Source of the DNA: Patescibacteria group bacterium
GTDB taxonomy: Bacteria > Patescibacteriota > UBA1384 > 2-12-FULL-50-11
Direction of reading: 5' to 3'
Length of the DNA: 64,000 bases
Assembly (NCBI GenBank): GCA_038058635.1
Contig: JBBUAP010000001.1
Coordinates: 295,877-359,876, forward strand
This document shows positions 4,194-61,505 of this stretch, in pieces. The first letter of the stretch is position 1. The number at the start of each line of letters is the position of its first letter. A program made the translations under genes and the position numbers. The notes under the pieces are model-generated. The model was given only the letters and a program-made list of their open reading frames with translations, did not search any database and was not told where the DNA came from.

Positions 4194-4276
4194 GCCTGGG
4201 TGGTGGAATGGCAGACACGCTGGATTCAGGTTCCAGTGCTCGCAAGAGTGTGGAGGTTCGACTCCTCTTCCAGGCA
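4194..4276 (+). tRNA. tRNA-Leu (anticodon CAG), long variable arm
   Basis: Acceptor GCCTGGG/TCCAGGC with one G-U pair. Anticodon stem CTGGA/TCCAG with loop TTCAGGT. Variable hairpin GCTC-GCAA-GAG. T-arm GGAGG-TTCGACT-CCTCT. Discriminator A. Confidence 0.8.
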
Positions 4277-4279
4277 CAT

Positions 4280-4960: not shown

Positions 4961-5047
4961 GCCCAGGTGGAGAAATCGGTAAACTCGCAGCCTTGAGGTG
5001 GCTGTGCTCGAAAGAGCTTGGAGGTTCAAGTCCTCTCCTGGGCACCA
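4961..5047 (+). tRNA. tRNA-Leu (anticodon GAG), long variable arm, CCA encoded
   Basis: Acceptor GCCCAGG/CCTGGGC. Anticodon stem CAGCC/GGCTG with loop TTGAGGT. Variable hairpin. T-arm GGAGG-TTCAAGT-CCTCT. Discriminator A then CCA. Confidence 0.8.
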
Positions 5048-12344: not shown

Positions 12345-14135
12345 GTGATGAAGCCGATTTACCTCGAGCCGGACGAGGAGATTACTTCGATTATCGATCG
12401 ATTGGCAAAAGTCGACGAAAAGAAGATTGCCGTGGTGGTGCCAAAGAACAGCACGATGTTCCAAAGTCTGGTTAATTTAAAACTCTTAGCCCGTCAGGCC
12501 CAAAAATTGGGTAAAGAAGTGGCGATAATCTCCAGCAACAAAATTGGTAGTCGTTTAGCCAAGCAGGTCGGGCTAGAAACCTACGCTAGTTTAGGGACGG
12601 TTAGCAACGCCCCGACACCTACGTCTGTGACTAAACCTACGCCAAGTACCGAACCAGTAGGAGCTGATGTTTTGCCTGATGGTACCCCGGTGCATCGTTA
12701 CTCACCAGAGGTGGGTACACAGCAACTAGCAACTAGCCAAGAGCCACTAGCAGATGATGACGAGGAACCAGAGTTAGTCAGCCAACCAGACGCTAATTTT
12801 ATCGAGCCAGAAGCCAGTGGCCAGTTACCAGTAGCTCCTGACAACAAGCCAGAAGCAGTTCCTGATGAGCCAGAAACCCCTATCGATTTGCCAGTGGCTA
12901 GTAGCCAGAAGCTAGTTGCCCCCCCAAGTTTACCTCCCATTGTCTCGCGGGGGGTTCAAACTCGTCACGAATTTGTCTTTCCCTGGAAATCCGCAGCTGT
13001 GGCCGGATCGCTGGTGATTATCGCCTTCATCGTCACCTTTCTGTTCTTGCCCAAGGCCACCGTCACCCTGACTTTCCCGGCCATACTGTTGAGCGATACC
13101 GTTACCCTAACCGCCAAAACAACTGCCACCGAAGGCGAAGGAATTATCGCGGGCAATTTACTAACAACCGAAAAAACCTTAACCCAAGAAGTGACGGCGA
13201 CAGGCCAGAAAGATGTTGGCACCAAAGCCAGCGGCTCGGTGGCTGTCAAAAACTGCGAAGACACCAATCCTCATAGTTTAGCCGCTGGTACCAAGGCCAC
13301 TGCTAGCAGTAAAACCTTTACCACCGGCGCGGCCGTGACTATCCCGGCCGGTACTTTTAGTGGCGGCGGCACCGTCTGCACTTCTTCGACGGTTAGCGTG
13401 ACGCTGACGGCCAGCGAAGCCGGAACAGCTCACAACTTAGCCAGTGCCACCTTCACCTTTGCTGGTCTGGCCAGTCGCATTAGCGCTACCGGCTCGACGA
13501 CCGGCGGGACTACCAAACAAATCACTGTTTTGTCCCAAGACGATGTCGATCAGGCCTACTCGGCGCTGAAAACCCAACTTGTTACCGATGCGACCAACGA
13601 CCTGAAAAGCAAGGCTGGCACCCAGAGCATCGTCGCCGAAGCCATCAAACAAACGGTGGTCGAACAAAAAGTCGACAAGTCAGTTGGCGCTGAGGTTGCT
13701 AAAGCGACTGCTTCAGTGACAATTAATCTTTTTACCATCACCTTCGACCAAAGCACCATTGACGCCGCTGTTAAAACGAAGTTGTCGGAAAAATTGACGG
13801 CCGATCAGGAGCTGATCATTGCCGAGAATCAAATCGCCCTGCCCGCGTTTAAAGAAATGTCCGACGACAAGACTAGCTTAACTTTGACGGTGGCCGCGTC
13901 CGGTTTCGCCGCCCCGATTATCAATAAAAAAGCGGTTACCAAAGAAGTTAAGAACAAATCCGTCACTAGCGCCGAAAGTTTTCTCAAAGATAAGTATCAA
14001 GCCAGCAATGCCAAGATCGAAATTATCCCCGGCTGGTGGTTGAAGCGCTTGCCAATTCTCTCCCAAGCCATTACTGTCGAGTACGGCTATGAAGAAACAA
14101 CTCCTCAACCTAAAGATGCGATACCTGGGACTTGA
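12345..14135 (+). CDS. bitopic membrane protein with a cytoplasmic N-domain, Pro-rich linker, one TM helix and a Thr/Ala/Ser-rich extracellular beta-rich domain
   Basis: 596 aa. The TM helix lies near aa 215-237. No family recognised. Confidence 0.5.
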   Translation: MMKPIYLEPDEEITSIIDRLAKVDEKKIAVVVPKNSTMFQSLVNLKLLARQAQKLGKEVAIISSNKIGSRLAKQVGLETYASLGTVSNAPTPTSVTKPTPSTEPVGADVLPDGTPVHRYSPEVGTQQLATSQEPLADDDEEPELVSQPDANFIEPEASGQLPVAPDNKPEAVPDEPETPIDLPVASSQKLVAPPSLPPIVSRGVQTRHEFVFPWKSAAVAGSLVIIAFIVTFLFLPKATVTLTFPAILLSDTVTLTAKTTATEGEGIIAGNLLTTEKTLTQEVTATGQKDVGTKASGSVAVKNCEDTNPHSLAAGTKATASSKTFTTGAAVTIPAGTFSGGGTVCTSSTVSVTLTASEAGTAHNLASATFTFAGLASRISATGSTTGGTTKQITVLSQDDVDQAYSALKTQLVTDATNDLKSKAGTQSIVAEAIKQTVVEQKVDKSVGAEVAKATASVTINLFTITFDQSTIDAAVKTKLSEKLTADQELIIAENQIALPAFKEMSDDKTSLTLTVAASGFAAPIINKKAVTKEVKNKSVTSAESFLKDKYQASNAKIEIIPGWWLKRLPILSQAITVEYGYEETTPQPKDAIPGT

Positions 14136-14544: not shown

Positions 14545-15442
14545 ACGCCTGGCCTTGGGCTTGCTGGGAATCATCGTCATCCTAGCAGTGATTTTTATTA
14601 TTCTTTTAGCGCCGAAAAATGAAGAGTCTACCGAAAAGGTAGATTTTGTCGTCGCCGCCAATCAACGATCGGCCGATATTTCGCAACATTTGGAAAAAGA
14701 GGGAGTGATCAAAAACGGTTTCGCCTTCTACCTCTATTTGAAGTTAATTAATGGCAAAATCCTGCCCGGTACCTACGAGTTGTCGACTAATCAGTCTGGC
14801 TCCGATATCGCCGGCCAGTTAGCCAGCGGCAAATTCAAGGTCGCCAAAATCACTATCATCGAAGGTTGGCGAGCCAGCCAGATGGAAGATTATTTTGTAA
14901 CCGACAAGAAGTTGCGCCAGCTAGAAGGATTTGCGAAACTGGCTGAGTCGTCCGAGGGCTATCTATTTCCCGATACTTACGAAGTCAAGATTGATGTCAC
15001 CAGTGAGGAGATAATCAAATTGATGCGGGAGACTTTCGAGCAGAAAACCAAGAGTCTACGGATTACACCCGAGACAGTTATTCTGGCCTCGATAGTTGAG
15101 CGCGAGTCGTTGGGGGATGAAGATCGGAGCCAAATCGCCGGTGTCTACGCCAATCGGGTCAGGCAAGGCATTCGACTCGAAGCCGATCCAACCATCCAGT
15201 ACGCCAAAGGCACTTGGGCGGCAGTGACACTCGCCGAGTATAAATCGGTCATCTCGCCGTACAATACATATCTTAACGACGGCTGGCCGCCGGGCCCGAT
15301 CTGCAGCCCGGGGCTGAAAAGCTTGGAAGCCGCTGCCGCACCAGCCAAGCACGACTATCTCTATTTTTTCCACGCCAAAGGTCAAACCTATTTCTCTAAA
15401 TCTTACGCCGAACACGCCGCCAAAGTCCGTCAAAATTTTTAA
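14531..15442 (+). CDS. mltG: endolytic murein transglycosylase MltG (YceG family)
   Basis: N-terminal TM helix and YceG motifs (IIEGWRASQ, ERES, NTYLNDGWPPGPICSPG). Forms the conserved ruvX-mltG pair. Confidence 0.75.
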   Translation: MLVLKRLALGLLGIIVILAVIFIILLAPKNEESTEKVDFVVAANQRSADISQHLEKEGVIKNGFAFYLYLKLINGKILPGTYELSTNQSGSDIAGQLASGKFKVAKITIIEGWRASQMEDYFVTDKKLRQLEGFAKLAESSEGYLFPDTYEVKIDVTSEEIIKLMRETFEQKTKSLRITPETVILASIVERESLGDEDRSQIAGVYANRVRQGIRLEADPTIQYAKGTWAAVTLAEYKSVISPYNTYLNDGWPPGPICSPGLKSLEAAAAPAKHDYLYFFHAKGQTYFSKSYAEHAAKVRQNF

Positions 15443-17312: not shown

Positions 17313-18106
17313 TTCGTTTTCCTCATTGGAATTATCGGGTCATTATTCTGACGATGGCGGTGCTATTACTGATTGCCAGCCAATTTCGTTTCTTTAGTCC
17401 GGTTCGTGATTTTACTCGTCGAGCAATCGGCGCACCCGCTAGCATGTTTGATTCCTTGGCTAATCGCTTGAGCGCCTCGGCGCGGATCCTGTTTGCGATT
17501 AACGATCTCTCCAAAGAAAACGCTACTCTGCGTCTGCAAAACTCGACTCTCGAAGCCCAACTTGCCAAACTCAACTCGGTCCAAGGTGAAAACGAAACGC
17601 TCCGCCAAGATTTGAGCTTTAAAAACAGCCGAACTGATCTGAAATTAACGCCGGCCGAAGTTTTGTCATTCTCCCCGTCGGGACTTTATCAGGCCTTTAC
17701 GATTAACCGCGGGGCCCATGACGGCATTAAGGAGAATCAGGCTGTTGTTTCCAACGGTTTTCTAATTGGAAAAATTCACAAAGTCGCAGATTCGACCGCC
17801 GAGGTTTGGTTGATCACCAACCGCAACCTCCTGACTCCGGTCGTTCTGACCGGCAGCCAAACTATCGGCTTGCTATCGGGAGGAATTCGGGGATTGGTGG
17901 TCGAAAATATTCCGCTTGACACTAAAGTTTCGGTCGGAGAGCTGGTCGTCACTTCTTCGCTCGAAGGCATTTACCCATCGGGAATCGCCATTGGGAAAGT
18001 CGAGGAAATTATTTCGCTGAAGGAAGAAATTTTTCTAACCCTACGGATTAGCACTCCGACTAAATTCGGCGATCTGACGGTGGTTTTCGTGGTCACTAAG
18101 AGCTAA
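17309..18106 (+). CDS. mreC: rod-shape-determining protein MreC
   Basis: N-terminal TM helix, coiled-coil segment and C-terminal beta domain. Lies immediately after mreB. Confidence 0.75.
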   Translation: MIRFPHWNYRVIILTMAVLLLIASQFRFFSPVRDFTRRAIGAPASMFDSLANRLSASARILFAINDLSKENATLRLQNSTLEAQLAKLNSVQGENETLRQDLSFKNSRTDLKLTPAEVLSFSPSGLYQAFTINRGAHDGIKENQAVVSNGFLIGKIHKVADSTAEVWLITNRNLLTPVVLTGSQTIGLLSGGIRGLVVENIPLDTKVSVGELVVTSSLEGIYPSGIAIGKVEEIISLKEEIFLTLRISTPTKFGDLTVVFVVTKS

Positions 18107-18139
18107 TCCACATCAACCTTAAGAAGCGAATATGAAATT

Positions 18140-18262
18140 CATTTCGAGCGAAAAAGGTGATTTATGTCGAGCCACTAGTTGGCGAGAGCTAGGAGCGAAG
18201 CGACTATGAAGAACGATAGAAGCTCTATCGTGATGAGTAAATCGGTTTTTGCAGCCGAAATG
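18140..18262 (+). repeat. roughly 120-nt intergenic element, copy A of two in the window
   Basis: Shares a 5' terminus CATTTCGAGCGAAAA and a 3' terminus GATGAGT..(T)TTGCAGCCGAAAT with the element at 41058-41173. It has an internal hairpin (GATAGAAGCTCTATC) and 7-bp terminal complementarity CATTTCG/CGAAATG. Confidence 0.5.
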
Positions 18263-18303
18263 AATCAGATGCAGCTATATATGTTGTTGTGGATTAGCTC
18301 TAA

Positions 18304-18777
18304 ATGAAGTGGCTGATGTTACTGGTCGTCGTCGGGCTGACCATTGGCCCGTTCGGACATCTCGCCCAATCGGCGCCGATGACACCCAATTTGTTGGTGG
18401 TATTTTTGTGGGCCATGAGCTGGTTTCGCGGTCGCGAGCAAACACTAGCTTTGGCGATTGGGGGCGGCTTGTTACTAGATCTGGTCGGCTGGAATTGGTT
18501 TGGGCTCTGGACAATCAGCGCCGTCGCCGTCGTTTGGGTAATCAGTCTACTCAAAGGGCGACTTCTGGCCACCAGCTCGATTCTCCACGCCCTGCTGGCC
18601 CTGGCGGTAGTCTCGCTGATTGCGCCGCTACTACTCTCGATCGCCACCGGAACTATTGATGTCAAAGAAGTTAGTCTTGTGGTATTGGGCAATGTACTAC
18701 TTGGCCTAATTGTTTATTATCTGTTAGCAATGAGATTAAGAATGTTTCAACGATGGGCCGGCCGAAGAATCGCGTAG
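18304..18777 (+). CDS. mreD: rod-shape-determining protein MreD (probable)
   Basis: 157-aa protein with several TM helices, sitting between mreC and PBP2. Confidence 0.55.
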   Translation: MKWLMLLVVVGLTIGPFGHLAQSAPMTPNLLVVFLWAMSWFRGREQTLALAIGGGLLLDLVGWNWFGLWTISAVAVVWVISLLKGRLLATSSILHALLALAVVSLIAPLLLSIATGTIDVKEVSLVVLGNVLLGLIVYYLLAMRLRMFQRWAGRRIA

Positions 18778-40111: not shown

Positions 40112-41038
40112 ATGGAGTTTTCCCGACAGGTTGTCTTAGAGCCGAGAGATATTTGGTGGGAGGAGGGCGGAGTTTTTAATCCGGCGGCCGTGGAGCTCGG
40201 CGGAAAAATCCACATGCTCTACCGGGCGGTTGGCAGTGATCACATCTCCAGATTCGGGTTGGCCATTTCGGAAGACGGCGAAACTTTTACCCGTTTCGAC
40301 CAACCGATTTTCGAAGGCGACCCCAACAACCCTTTTGAACGATTGGGGGTTAAAGACCCACGCGCCACCGTCATTGGCCGAGATATTTTTATTACTTACA
40401 CCGCCGTCTCAATTTACGAGGCCGGTACTAAACCAATCAACCAACCGCCTGATCCAACCCACACACCATGGAGAACCAGAGTCAGTATTCTCAAAACCCG
40501 AGATATGCGTTCCTTCCAAAAGCTAGGGGTCGTTCTGCCAGATATCGACAGCAAAGATGCCGTGATCGTGCCAGAGCGTCACCTCGGATTTTACTGGCTA
40601 ATCCACCGGGTAGACCCGAGTATTTTTATTGCTCGATCGCGAGATTTGAAAAAATGGGAAGGCAGCATCGAAATGATGACCGCCAAAGAACCCTGGGAGC
40701 AACTGAAAATTGGAGCCGCCTGTCCGCCGATTGAGGTTGAGGGCGGTTGGCTCCTGCTTTATCACGGCGTTTCATCAAATTACACCTATTCGGTCGGCGC
40801 CGCCCTACTGGCCCGCGAAAATCCGGCCGTTGTATTAAAGCGGGCCAAACACCCAATTATGTCACCACATTTTGATTGGGAGAAGCGTGGCGTGGTCAGT
40901 AATGTCGTTTTTCCGACCGGCGCGATTGTCAGTCACGGCAAAATCCATTTATATTATGGCGGGGCCGACAAAGTCGTTGGTTTGGCGAAGATTCCTCTTG
41001 AGAACATAATGCAGGCCCTAGAGCCTGACAACATCTAA
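40112..41038 (+). CDS. GH130 / DUF377-family glycoside hydrolase or phosphorylase (5-bladed beta-propeller)
   Basis: Motifs GGVFNPAAVELGGKIHMLYRAVG and LLYHGV, typical of the GH130 / PH1107-related glycosidases. Confidence 0.6.
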   Translation: MEFSRQVVLEPRDIWWEEGGVFNPAAVELGGKIHMLYRAVGSDHISRFGLAISEDGETFTRFDQPIFEGDPNNPFERLGVKDPRATVIGRDIFITYTAVSIYEAGTKPINQPPDPTHTPWRTRVSILKTRDMRSFQKLGVVLPDIDSKDAVIVPERHLGFYWLIHRVDPSIFIARSRDLKKWEGSIEMMTAKEPWEQLKIGAACPPIEVEGGWLLLYHGVSSNYTYSVGAALLARENPAVVLKRAKHPIMSPHFDWEKRGVVSNVVFPTGAIVSHGKIHLYYGGADKVVGLAKIPLENIMQALEPDNI

Positions 41039-41057
41039 TGCCGAGGAAAAACATTCC

Positions 41058-41173
41058 CATTTCGAGCGAAAACCACGAAGACCGACGAACCGTATCGGGA
41101 TACGGTGAGGAGAGATGTCGTTTAACTCGTCTCTCACTAACCAGTTCGAGATGAGTGATTTGCAGCCGAAATC
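41058..41173 (+). repeat. roughly 120-nt intergenic element, copy B
   Basis: Same conserved 5' and 3' termini as 18140-18262. Its internal hairpins (CCGTATCGGGATACGG and GAGAGA..TCTCTC) differ in sequence. Confidence 0.5.
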
Positions 41174-41230
41174 GGGGGATGTTTTAACCGGCAAGCAGCA
41201 TTGTTTTAGTTTGGATGTTGCGGTTAGATT

Positions 41231-41557
41231 TTGTCAGGATCTAAGATGAGACTTAACTTCTCGCTGGTGACCGACCGTTATCAACAGCTAGCCAACAAAC
41301 GCCGGTTTTGGTGGGTGATCAGCACACTAGTTTTGGTCGGTTTATTTTGGTTGGCGCGAGTCGCCGAACCAACTAGTTTGATAGTCTACCAGCAACTAGT
41401 CGTTCTCTACGCGATCGATAGCGTACTCTTCTTTTTGACCGACCGCACCAATGCTAAGATGGGTGTGTTGACCTTAATTTTTCTAACCACCATGGAGGTG
41501 ATTGTGACTATATTCTACCTAATTAGCCTAACTGCCGGACCCCCAATTCTAATATGA
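41231..41557 (+). CDS. small membrane protein (3 TM)
   Basis: 108 aa, hydrophobic. Its end overlaps the downstream GT2 gene. Confidence 0.4.
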   Translation: MSGSKMRLNFSLVTDRYQQLANKRRFWWVISTLVLVGLFWLARVAEPTSLIVYQQLVVLYAIDSVLFFLTDRTNAKMGVLTLIFLTTMEVIVTIFYLISLTAGPPILI

Positions 41558-59593: not shown

Positions 59594-59982
59594 GGGGCTG
59601 TAATGGCTTCGACGGGAACTTTAACAACCAAATTTGCAAGCGGAGAGTACCTGCCTTAGAGTACAAAAAAATACGTGCAAACGTTATGAGCAAAGTCAAA
59701 GCTACTGTAGCAAACGCGTTTGGTAGCTTCGTCGCTCAACCAGTATTCGCCTAAACTCGAATACCGTTTCTCTGTTTGATCTCTACTGAAACAGAGACGC
59801 GTCATAATCGTAGGGTAGTAATTGGGTTTTCATCGGCCCTTTCACAAGATTAAGATGATGCTGTTGCTGGGTGTTTCGTCTGTTTTTAGCCCAATGACCT
59901 AAGAAAAGTAAGCAGTCTAAGCTTGTAGTAGATTTGGTTCGTTTGTTTTCGGACGCGGGTTCGACTCCCGCCAGCTCCACCA
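59594..59982 (+). ncRNA. ssrA: tmRNA (ssrA)
   Basis: 5' end GGGGCTGTAATGGCTTCGACGGG and 3' end GGACGCGGGTTCGACTCCCGCCAGCTCCACCA, both near-identical to canonical tmRNA termini. The internal tag frame GCA AAC GCG ... GCC TAA would read ANAFGSFVAQPVFA. Confidence 0.85.
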
Positions 59983-61016: not shown

Positions 61017-61505
61017 ATGACCAAATTCGTTTTATCGGTGATTGCGTTTAGCATCGCGGCAATTTTGGCTATTTATTTTATTGGGTCTAAAAACACGAAA
61101 GAGAATACTACGAGTATCGAGAGTCCCGTCGGTACCTACGAACTTTCGAGCGAAAAGATGGACCTAGGCGAAATGACAGTCGACGTTAAAAAAACTGCTA
61201 ATTTTACTTTCAAAAATACGAGTAGCGAAAAGATGAATTTGAGTAAGTTTGAAACTAGCTGTAACTGCACGATGACCGAAGTAAAAATCAACGGCGATAC
61301 TTCGCCGATGTTCAATATGCCGGCCCATATGTCGAGTGCCGAAAAGGCCTGGAATCGCGATCTAGCTCCAGGCGAAACAGCCGAGATAAATGTTACTTAC
61401 GAACCGGCCTTAATGCCGGTCTACGGCCCGATCGAACGTTACTCAACTTTTAAAATTAATAATTTCAAGGAAATTCGACTAACCGTGGCGGCTACCGTCA
61501 AGTGA
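61017..61505 (+). CDS. membrane-anchored hypothetical protein with a CxC motif (DUF1573-like)
   Basis: N-terminal TM helix, a beta-rich domain and an SCNCT motif. Sits inside a metal-handling cluster. Confidence 0.4.
   Translation: MTKFVLSVIAFSIAAILAIYFIGSKNTKENTTSIESPVGTYELSSEKMDLGEMTVDVKKTANFTFKNTSSEKMNLSKFETSCNCTMTEVKINGDTSPMFNMPAHMSSAEKAWNRDLAPGETAEINVTYEPALMPVYGPIERYSTFKINNFKEIRLTVAATVK

Follow-up and report, generated by a model that had tools for sequence, protein, structure and literature searches.

The Correia elements of Neisseria (CREE/NEMIS), the ERIC/IRU elements and the RUP elements are bacterial MITEs, that is, non-autonomous foldback DNA transposons. The sequences described here resemble them in being non-coding, hairpin-forming and of the 100-200 bp class, in carrying terminal inverted repeats (TIRs) and duplicating a short AT-rich target, and in lying scattered between genes, often co-transcribed within operons, with a presence or absence that varies among close relatives. 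Palindromic mobile repeats of another sort, the Rickettsia palindromic elements (RPE), are inserted in frame within genes and translated throughout. The IS5 superfamily of transposable elements has ends beginning with GA or GG (ISfinder table) and produces 2-4-bp target duplications; to our knowledge, REP/BIME and IS200/IS605-type elements have neither a target duplication nor TIRs. Target duplications of 3 bp, of TNA/TAA type, are made by the IS1031 and IS427 groups of the IS5 family (PMC2516522), and the related eukaryotic Harbinger elements likewise duplicate 3 bp (PMC12730594).

The present study concerns a 64-kb stretch of DNA (64,000 nucleotides, hereafter the window), in which an earlier note, made from the sequence alone, had reported two copies of an intergenic element of roughly 120 nt with conserved termini and variable hairpin cores, here referred to as copies A and B. 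These reported elements are the conserved centres of hairpin-shaped MITEs of about 200-220 bp. The combination of TIRs, short target-site duplications (TSDs), no coding capacity, multiple copies, empty sites and unrelated genomic contexts constitutes the defining set of a MITE, and each locus is therefore very probably a non-autonomous foldback DNA transposon of that size.

Extent and insertion sites of the two copies

Copies A and B both lie on the + strand, in the same orientation as their flanking genes. Copy A is located between the stop codon of mreC, identified by its Pfam MreC match, and the ATG of a 157-aa ORF in the mreD position, and MreC homologues identify the organism as Candidatus Berkelbacteria, a CPR lineage. 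Copy B is located between a gene with a GH130 match (Pfam, E = 1e-58) and a 103-aa ORF. Both placements, including the gap of about 200 nt between mreC and mreD, are as originally described. The 5' block CATTTCGAGCGAAAA is present exactly in both copies and has no other zero-mismatch site in the window, while the 3' block TTTGCAGCCGAAAT occurs exactly at these two places only. The chance of a given 15-mer recurring in 128 kb of two-strand sequence is about 1e-4 by arithmetic, and the composite pattern GATGAG-N(2-30)-GCCGAAA is found twice in the window against 0.15 expected, a count of two being reached in none of 100 shuffles. The claimed similarity of the two loci, consisting of an exact 15-mer and an exact 14-mer common to both, is thus far beyond chance.

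Pairwise alignment of copy A with copy B gave identity in the shared blocks and essentially none in between, where the proposed internal hairpins are indeed present in both copies, with unrelated sequences. The equal 77-nt spacing in A and B is coincidental, given that the span of the conserved blocks (TTTCG...CGAAA) ranges from 78 to 126 nt in other members. As for the proposed closing helix CATTTCG/CGAAATG, the pairing is real, but in copy B it is formed by ATTTCG/CGAAAT, the final base being C rather than G. A partial block match at 61142, falling within an ORF, was set aside as a chance occurrence.

The idea of a self-contained unit of about 120 nt with conserved termini had to be abandoned, as pairing extends 40-60 nt further on each side, giving true units of 201 and 221 nt (Table 1) bounded by outer inverted repeats with the start GAGC... 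An inverted-repeat search placed the outer arms at 18093-18117/18283-18307 for copy A and at about 41000-41038/41224-41262 for copy B. The extended folds reached z = -6.7 (18092-18306, copy A) and z = -6.9 (41018-41250, copy B), with no shuffle folding as well, whereas the 120-nt pieces alone fold at z = -4.0 and -1.7 only (copies A and B, respectively). The sole other match of each left TIR in the window is its own partner on the - strand, with one difference in copy A (18283-18300) and two mismatches in copy B (41224-41241). Between the two copies, 11 of 18 terminal bases of the outer repeats are alike, compared with 100% of the central blocks. The extra segment in the right arm of copy B shares its position and the motif CGGCAAGC...GCGGT with four metagenome members of the family (L061, L082, L065 and L069; fetched loci are designated by L numbers).

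Table 1. Coordinates of the two foldback elements and their parts in the window
Feature	Position	Strand	Remarks
Copy A, whole foldback element	18100-18300	+	201 nt
Copy A, left TSD (TAA)	18097-18099	+	direct repeat of 18301-18303, flanking the inverted repeats
Copy A, left outer TIR, GAGCTAATCCACATCAAC	18100-18117	+	holds the present mreC stop (18104-18106)
Copy A, conserved centre	18140-18262	+	5' block 18140-18154, GATGAG 18232-18237, 3' block 18248-18261; two private hairpins between
Copy A, right outer TIR, GTTGTTGTGGATTAGCTC	18283-18300	+	17/18 complementary to the left TIR
Copy A, right TSD (TAA)	18301-18303	+	mreD ATG (18304) directly after
Copy B, whole foldback element	41021-41241	+	221 nt
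Copy B, left TSD (TA, possibly CTA at 41018-41020)	41019-41020	+	repeated at 41242-41243
Copy B, left outer TIR, GAGCCTGACAACATCTAATG	41021-41040	+	gives the GH130 gene its last 5 codons and stop (41036-41038)
Copy B, conserved centre	41058-41173	+	5' block 41058-41072, 3' block 41159-41172
Copy B, GAAGA facing GATGA	41078-41082 and 41150-41154	+	within the centre
Copy B, extra segment AGCAGC...GTTGCG	41194-41221	+	right arm only
Copy B, right outer TIR, GGTTAGATTTTGTCAGGATC	41222-41241	+	pairs with 41021-41040
Copy B, right TSD (TA)	41242-41243	+	downstream ORF ATG at 41246

Elsewhere in the window, a 596-aa ORF contains an imperfect inverted repeat of 34 nt at 12722-12919 (fold z = -4.2); the repeat was rejected as a copy of the element, being a coding, low-complexity sequence rich in Pro, Glu, Ala and Ser, with CCAG/GCTAG-like repeats.

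Comparison with close relatives revealed the empty sites. On Berkelbacteria contigs with 90, 87 and 82% MreC identity, the mreC and mreD genes share an ATGA overlap, and all of the 204-nt stretch is absent. Removal of the element and one TAA from copy A restores GTC ACT AAA TGA, with the mreD ATG overlapping the TGA, which is the arrangement of the relatives. At the copy B site, the GH130 gene and the next gene overlap in relatives at 88 and 81% GH130 identity, reading CTAGATGAG, and a 94% relative has the same insertion with a few substitutions. The deduced empty site of copy B, GCC CTA AGA TGA, is an ATGA overlap too; it exceeds the sequence of the 88% relative by 1 nt, which leaves a 1-nt uncertainty as to whether TA or CTA was duplicated. 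The gapless gene overlaps in close relatives mark the two copies as lineage-specific insertions, each placed 0-2 nt upstream of the ATGA of a stop/start overlap. Insertion also accounts for the altered ends of the upstream genes, mreC now stopping 4 nt inside the left arm of copy A and the GH130 gene reading five codons of copy B before its stop.

Other features were noted on contigs of these and related populations. In the 87% MreC relative, a 330-aa RVT_1 gene (L056:16368-17360) lies between a 251-aa hypothetical gene and serS; it is absent at the matching place in the genome of the window (L049) and is therefore a strain-variable retroelement. Another assembly of the same population carries a 512-aa serine recombinase (L092:1891-3429; Resolvase/Recombinase/Zn_ribbon_recom), about 7-8 kb upstream of a DUF1573 gene, which may belong to an integrated element. 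Near-perfect intergenic hairpins of 60-90 nt are present in related Berkelbacteria (L088:11258-11321; L056:11511-11593 and 14551-14619; L087:850-937), one of them beginning GAGCGGATG...GCCGAAAGCTC; these hairpins may be either terminators or foldback elements reduced to a minimal form.

Further members, target duplications and mobilisation

A metagenome scan with the pattern TTTCGAGCGAAA-N(78-108)-GCAGCCGAAA returned 26 loci, about 15 of which are distinct real members, with a GC content of 42 to 68%; part of the conservation of the central blocks among these matches stems from the search pattern itself. Immediately outside the blocks, the bases differ between members but can pair with each other within a member, and every element occupies the middle of a long hairpin. 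TIRs are present in all full-length metagenome members, and the ends in the family read GAGCC, GAACC or GGGCA. The centre varies less between subfamilies than the outer repeats do, a pattern opposite to that of a typical MITE. The elements measure 164-246 nt, and their small internal ORFs are not conserved between copies; a reading of copy B as a small gene was discarded because its 38-codon ORF is not conserved in other members.

When the fetched loci were searched with relaxed criteria, second copies on the same contig emerged in L072, L082 and L084. Two of these, L082b and L084b, were detected through similar terminal repeats or by tolerating mismatches, and their blocks are partly altered; the central blocks are thus conserved but not invariant. 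A 58-nt derivative at L067:2846-2903, comprising the two TIRs of the L067 element and part of its left arm in inverted orientation, suggests an internal deletion in which the ends were kept. The source genome itself holds a third, diverged copy (L094:1583-1744) about 5.4 kb upstream of window position 1, making three copies within about 70 kb. Its ends, CGAACCCATTGCAAAACT, are of the GAACCC type and its blocks are changed to UUUUCAGCGAGAG and GUAGCUAAAAA, with an inner helix UUUUC.../...AAAAA; the GAGGA/GACGA and GAUGAG motifs are kept. On one side of this copy is a divergent thioredoxin-reductase-like gene and on the other a 177-aa ORF that has its called ATG within the right TIR; no clear target duplication was seen at the flanks of the copy. 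The suggestion in the earlier note of a miniature mobile repeat of MITE type is accordingly borne out by the outer TIRs, the target-site duplications, the empty sites in close relatives and the many copies in unrelated contexts.

A covariance model built from a trimmed alignment recovered 11 known members and part of L086, while missing several others (copy A, L076 and L060) owing to the long variable interior. It added three weak and doubtful matches, namely L074 (29.5 bits), L071 and L077:1343-1393, and gave no additional copy over the window. A scan of representative genomes with a pattern of 23 base specifications returned 48 loci, all of them chance matches inside coding regions. Scans of viral contigs gave zero or chance matches, and blastn against plasmid and phage collections gave nothing above noise. 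The element had no Rfam match in the whole window at the gathering threshold, and neither the two copies nor eight metagenome loci matched any family at E<=10 or E<=1; all Rfam searches together returned only tRNAs, tmRNA and spurious plant-miRNA or snoRNA matches.

Among the RNA genes of the window, the tmRNA gene lies at 59594-59982 (Rfam, 151.7 bits), and tRNA-Leu (CAG) at 4194-4277 and tRNA-Leu (GAG) at 4961-5047 bracket a 249-aa ORF with a faint LAGLIDADG_3 Pfam match, which may be a homing-endonuclease-like gene; Rfam at the gathering threshold gave only the first of this pair. Further tRNAs lie at 1370, 1913, 54407 (- strand) and 55608.

The neighbours of the members are unrelated housekeeping genes, such as those for PheS, Dus, an epimerase and an SNF2 helicase. 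The L081 element (68% GC) adjoins an SDR gene whose named relatives belong to Binatia and Limnocylindria, and this weak taxonomic marker suggests that the family is not confined to CPR bacteria. Between co-directional genes the elements are in the sense orientation in a ratio of 4:1 where this could be judged, in a small sample, and the first L072 copy (L072a) is antisense to both of its neighbours. Only three or four members sit at stop/start junctions.

These contexts also bear on the proposal that the elements are stand-alone, non-mobile structured ncRNAs or cis-regulatory RNAs of the flanking operons, for instance modules for processing or termination, which is highly unlikely. The secondary structure covaries, as described below, and the two copies in the window run in the sense direction of their operons, as such a reading would have it; the empty orthologous sites with overlapping genes, however, largely refute it, and the TSDs and TIRs, the unrelated neighbours, the at least one member antisense to both of its neighbours, and the lack of any Rfam match all weigh against it. 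No constant context or orientation and no promoter or terminator marks such a module, and both window copies are recent insertions.

Thirteen of the 18 elements carry a TSD, as a direct rather than an inverted repeat of 2-4 nt; no clear duplication was seen at the other five. The 3-nt duplications are TAA (copy A, L082b and L069), TGA (L061) and TCA (L082a), the 2-nt duplications are all TA (copy B, L065, L078 and L072b), and the 4-nt duplications, at four independent GGGCACC-subfamily insertions, are TAAA, TAGA, TATA and TAAA. In many cases the triplet that is duplicated coincides with the stop codon of an adjoining gene, or with its complement. The IS1031-type signature, a 3-bp TNA duplication together with ends beginning GAG, fits the GAGCC and GAACC subfamilies, other subfamilies giving 2- or 4-nt duplications. 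On the strength of duplication length, end sequence and the ISfinder table, we put at about even the chance that the elements are mobilised in trans by an IS5-type transposase. No autonomous element with matching ends was found in the fetched loci, and no transposase was found among the neighbours of the members or in the approximately 390 kb of fetched loci examined.

The events at the two operons may then be pictured as follows. The element would be cut and pasted by a DDE transposase acting in trans, most likely one of the IS5 superfamily. The insertion lies at a T-N-A beside the ATGA overlap of two co-transcribed genes; the upstream gene now reads 2-6 codons into the left arm and stops there, and the downstream ATG directly follows the right arm. 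Co-transcribed with the operon, the + strand of the element would form a rod some 70-80 bp long, with stop and start side by side at its base. A ribosome terminating in the left arm could open the rod base and keep downstream initiation possible, which is pure inference; such coupled termination and initiation would make insertion at these positions tolerable.

Structure of the centre and strand asymmetry

The first helix of the centre, P1, consists of UUUCG/CGAAA together with variable flanks, with positions defined by offset from sequence anchors. It is followed by a bulged A, then by GC/GC and a GA/GCA loop, and the second helix, P2, comprises AA and five nucleotides paired with five nucleotides and UU. 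In a fixed-offset alignment of 15 members, 85.4% of the cells were paired, compared with 66.6% in shuffles and 28-53% in slid controls, and both-side changes were found in 17 of 26 pairs, values that were reached by 0 of 500 shuffles; arms of transposons can, however, co-vary for DNA-level reasons as well. Beyond P2 lies at least one symmetric GA/GA loop, with a recurrent motif in which 5'-GA-N-GA-3' faces 5'-GA-N'-GA-3' and the N-N' pair covaries at a fixed motif position, being A-U in copy B and L076, G-C in L082 and C-G in L072b. The GATGAGT string that had been singled out as conserved is the 3' half of this motif, and its conservation is thereby explained. Copy A is without the 5' half.

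The folds are strongly asymmetric between strands. All 18 full elements fold more stably as the + strand than as the - strand, and in their minimum-energy folds the 2x2 loops were GA/GA in 24 cases and UC/UC in one, single mismatches being mostly purine-purine. The + strand has a purine content of 53-59%. There were 27 G·U against 7 A·C pairs in the fixed-offset helices; for the minimum-free-energy folds the figures were 79 and 34 (equivalent to G·U pairs on the + versus the - strand). These counts overstate independence, since some members are interrelated. As the neutral decay of a DNA palindrome would be symmetric, the fold appears to be selected on one strand, and from the strand asymmetry of the folds the selected single-stranded molecule is most likely RNA. 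The earlier idea of a conserved helix combined with variable hairpins is right; as the helices covary and the structure is strand-asymmetric, an RNA-level constraint on the transposon is likely.

The strand asymmetry of the fold would also fit a single-stranded DNA intermediate, as in REP/BIME or IS200/IS605-type palindromes moved by an HUH enzyme (RAYT/TnpA). This is extremely unlikely, given the direct 2-4-nt duplications at 13 of 18 elements, a length of about 200 nt that is far above that of REP sequences (palindromes of 20-40 nt), the lack of a GTAG-type head and the absence of any HUH gene nearby; on the length, the direct duplications and the missing HUH gene, the REP-like part of the mobile-repeat proposal is likewise not supported.

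With RNA as the favoured molecule, the question arises of what the centre does. One possible, though doubtful, answer is that the transposon carries a functional RNA module, its centre being a protein-binding or processing RNA. It could be a site for RNase III or another nuclease, a stabiliser or insulator of mRNA, or a regulator of its own transposase, and the module rather than the ends would then explain conservation across phyla. Several observations are in its favour: A and B have identical central blocks although their interiors, arms and outer repeats have diverged; N-N' covaries within a GA-N-GA/GA-N'-GA motif of constant position; a strong bias to one strand is seen in the purine-purine loops and the G·U pairs; and the family spans genomes of 42-68% GC. 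However, no promoter or terminator was predicted inside the elements and no Rfam family matches them, the G·A motif is incomplete in copy A, L082b and L094 interrupt or alter the supposedly invariant blocks, and orientation relative to genes is mixed.

The highly conserved centre (UUUCGAGCGAAA / GCAGCCGAAA with the GA-N-GA/GA-N'-GA loops) appears to be under + strand selection, most likely as RNA. That it is a mobile structured RNA module, a rod with such loops selected on one strand across distant phyla, is put forward tentatively, with the odds against it. Such a module might be a protein or nuclease recognition element that keeps stop and start coupled and so renders insertions into operons harmless, or it might control the element's own transposase.

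A catalytic RNA was also considered. In copy A, GAAA followed by two hairpins and then (N)UGAUGAG bears a superficial likeness to a self-cleaving type II hammerhead ribozyme, a reading that is barely conceivable. A hammerhead has CUGANGA and GAAA boxes around three helices. The box reads GUGAUGA in copy A and GAGAUGA in copy B, so that both copies lack the invariant C3; formation of stem II is not possible, the box of other members is GACGAG, GACAAG or GAGGAG, and no Rfam ribozyme family matches even at E<=10. Hammerhead, K-turn and C/D-box readings of GUGAUGAG were rejected in the same way, as the box is not conserved and there is neither a bulge nor a D box. An integron attC site was rejected for want of an RYYYAAC/GTTRRRY pair.

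Significance and relation to known systems

As a family the elements are new, but they belong to a familiar class of selfish DNA, the MITEs. Literature searches on the motif strings and on MITEs in CPR bacteria returned nothing relevant, and we found no earlier description of MITEs in Berkelbacteria or other CPR bacteria. The genomes of CPR bacteria are tiny and gene-dense, with many overlapping genes, and the copies show selfish DNA surviving precisely at stop/start overlaps, where insertion rewrites the last codons of one gene and leaves the next start intact. The puzzling 200-nt gap in the mreC-mreD operon is accounted for by the element. In genome annotation, members of the family lead to false ncRNA calls and to altered gene ends. 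If an RNA function does underlie the one-strand structural selection, this would be a rare example of DNA transposition spreading a structured RNA.

The link to the IS5 family (IS1031/IS427) and to its eukaryotic relatives, the PIF/Harbinger elements with their Tourist MITEs, is by signature only, 3-bp duplications being made there too, as neither a full-length IS nor a transposase gene with the present ends was found; a difference is that one subfamily described here, with ends GGGCACC, makes 4-nt duplications. Like RPE, the present elements are palindromic mobile repeats that join host frames, the left arm ending both mreC and the GH130 gene; they differ in lying at gene ends, with only 2-6 codons being read. 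From the Correia, ERIC and RUP elements, to which there is no sequence similarity, the family is set apart by its hosts, which are CPR and other uncultured bacteria, and by its target, as those elements duplicate TA only whereas T-N-A or 4 nt are duplicated here. It is further distinguished from them by having its most conserved part in the centre rather than at the ends, and by internal loops that are systematically tandem G·A with a one-strand bias.
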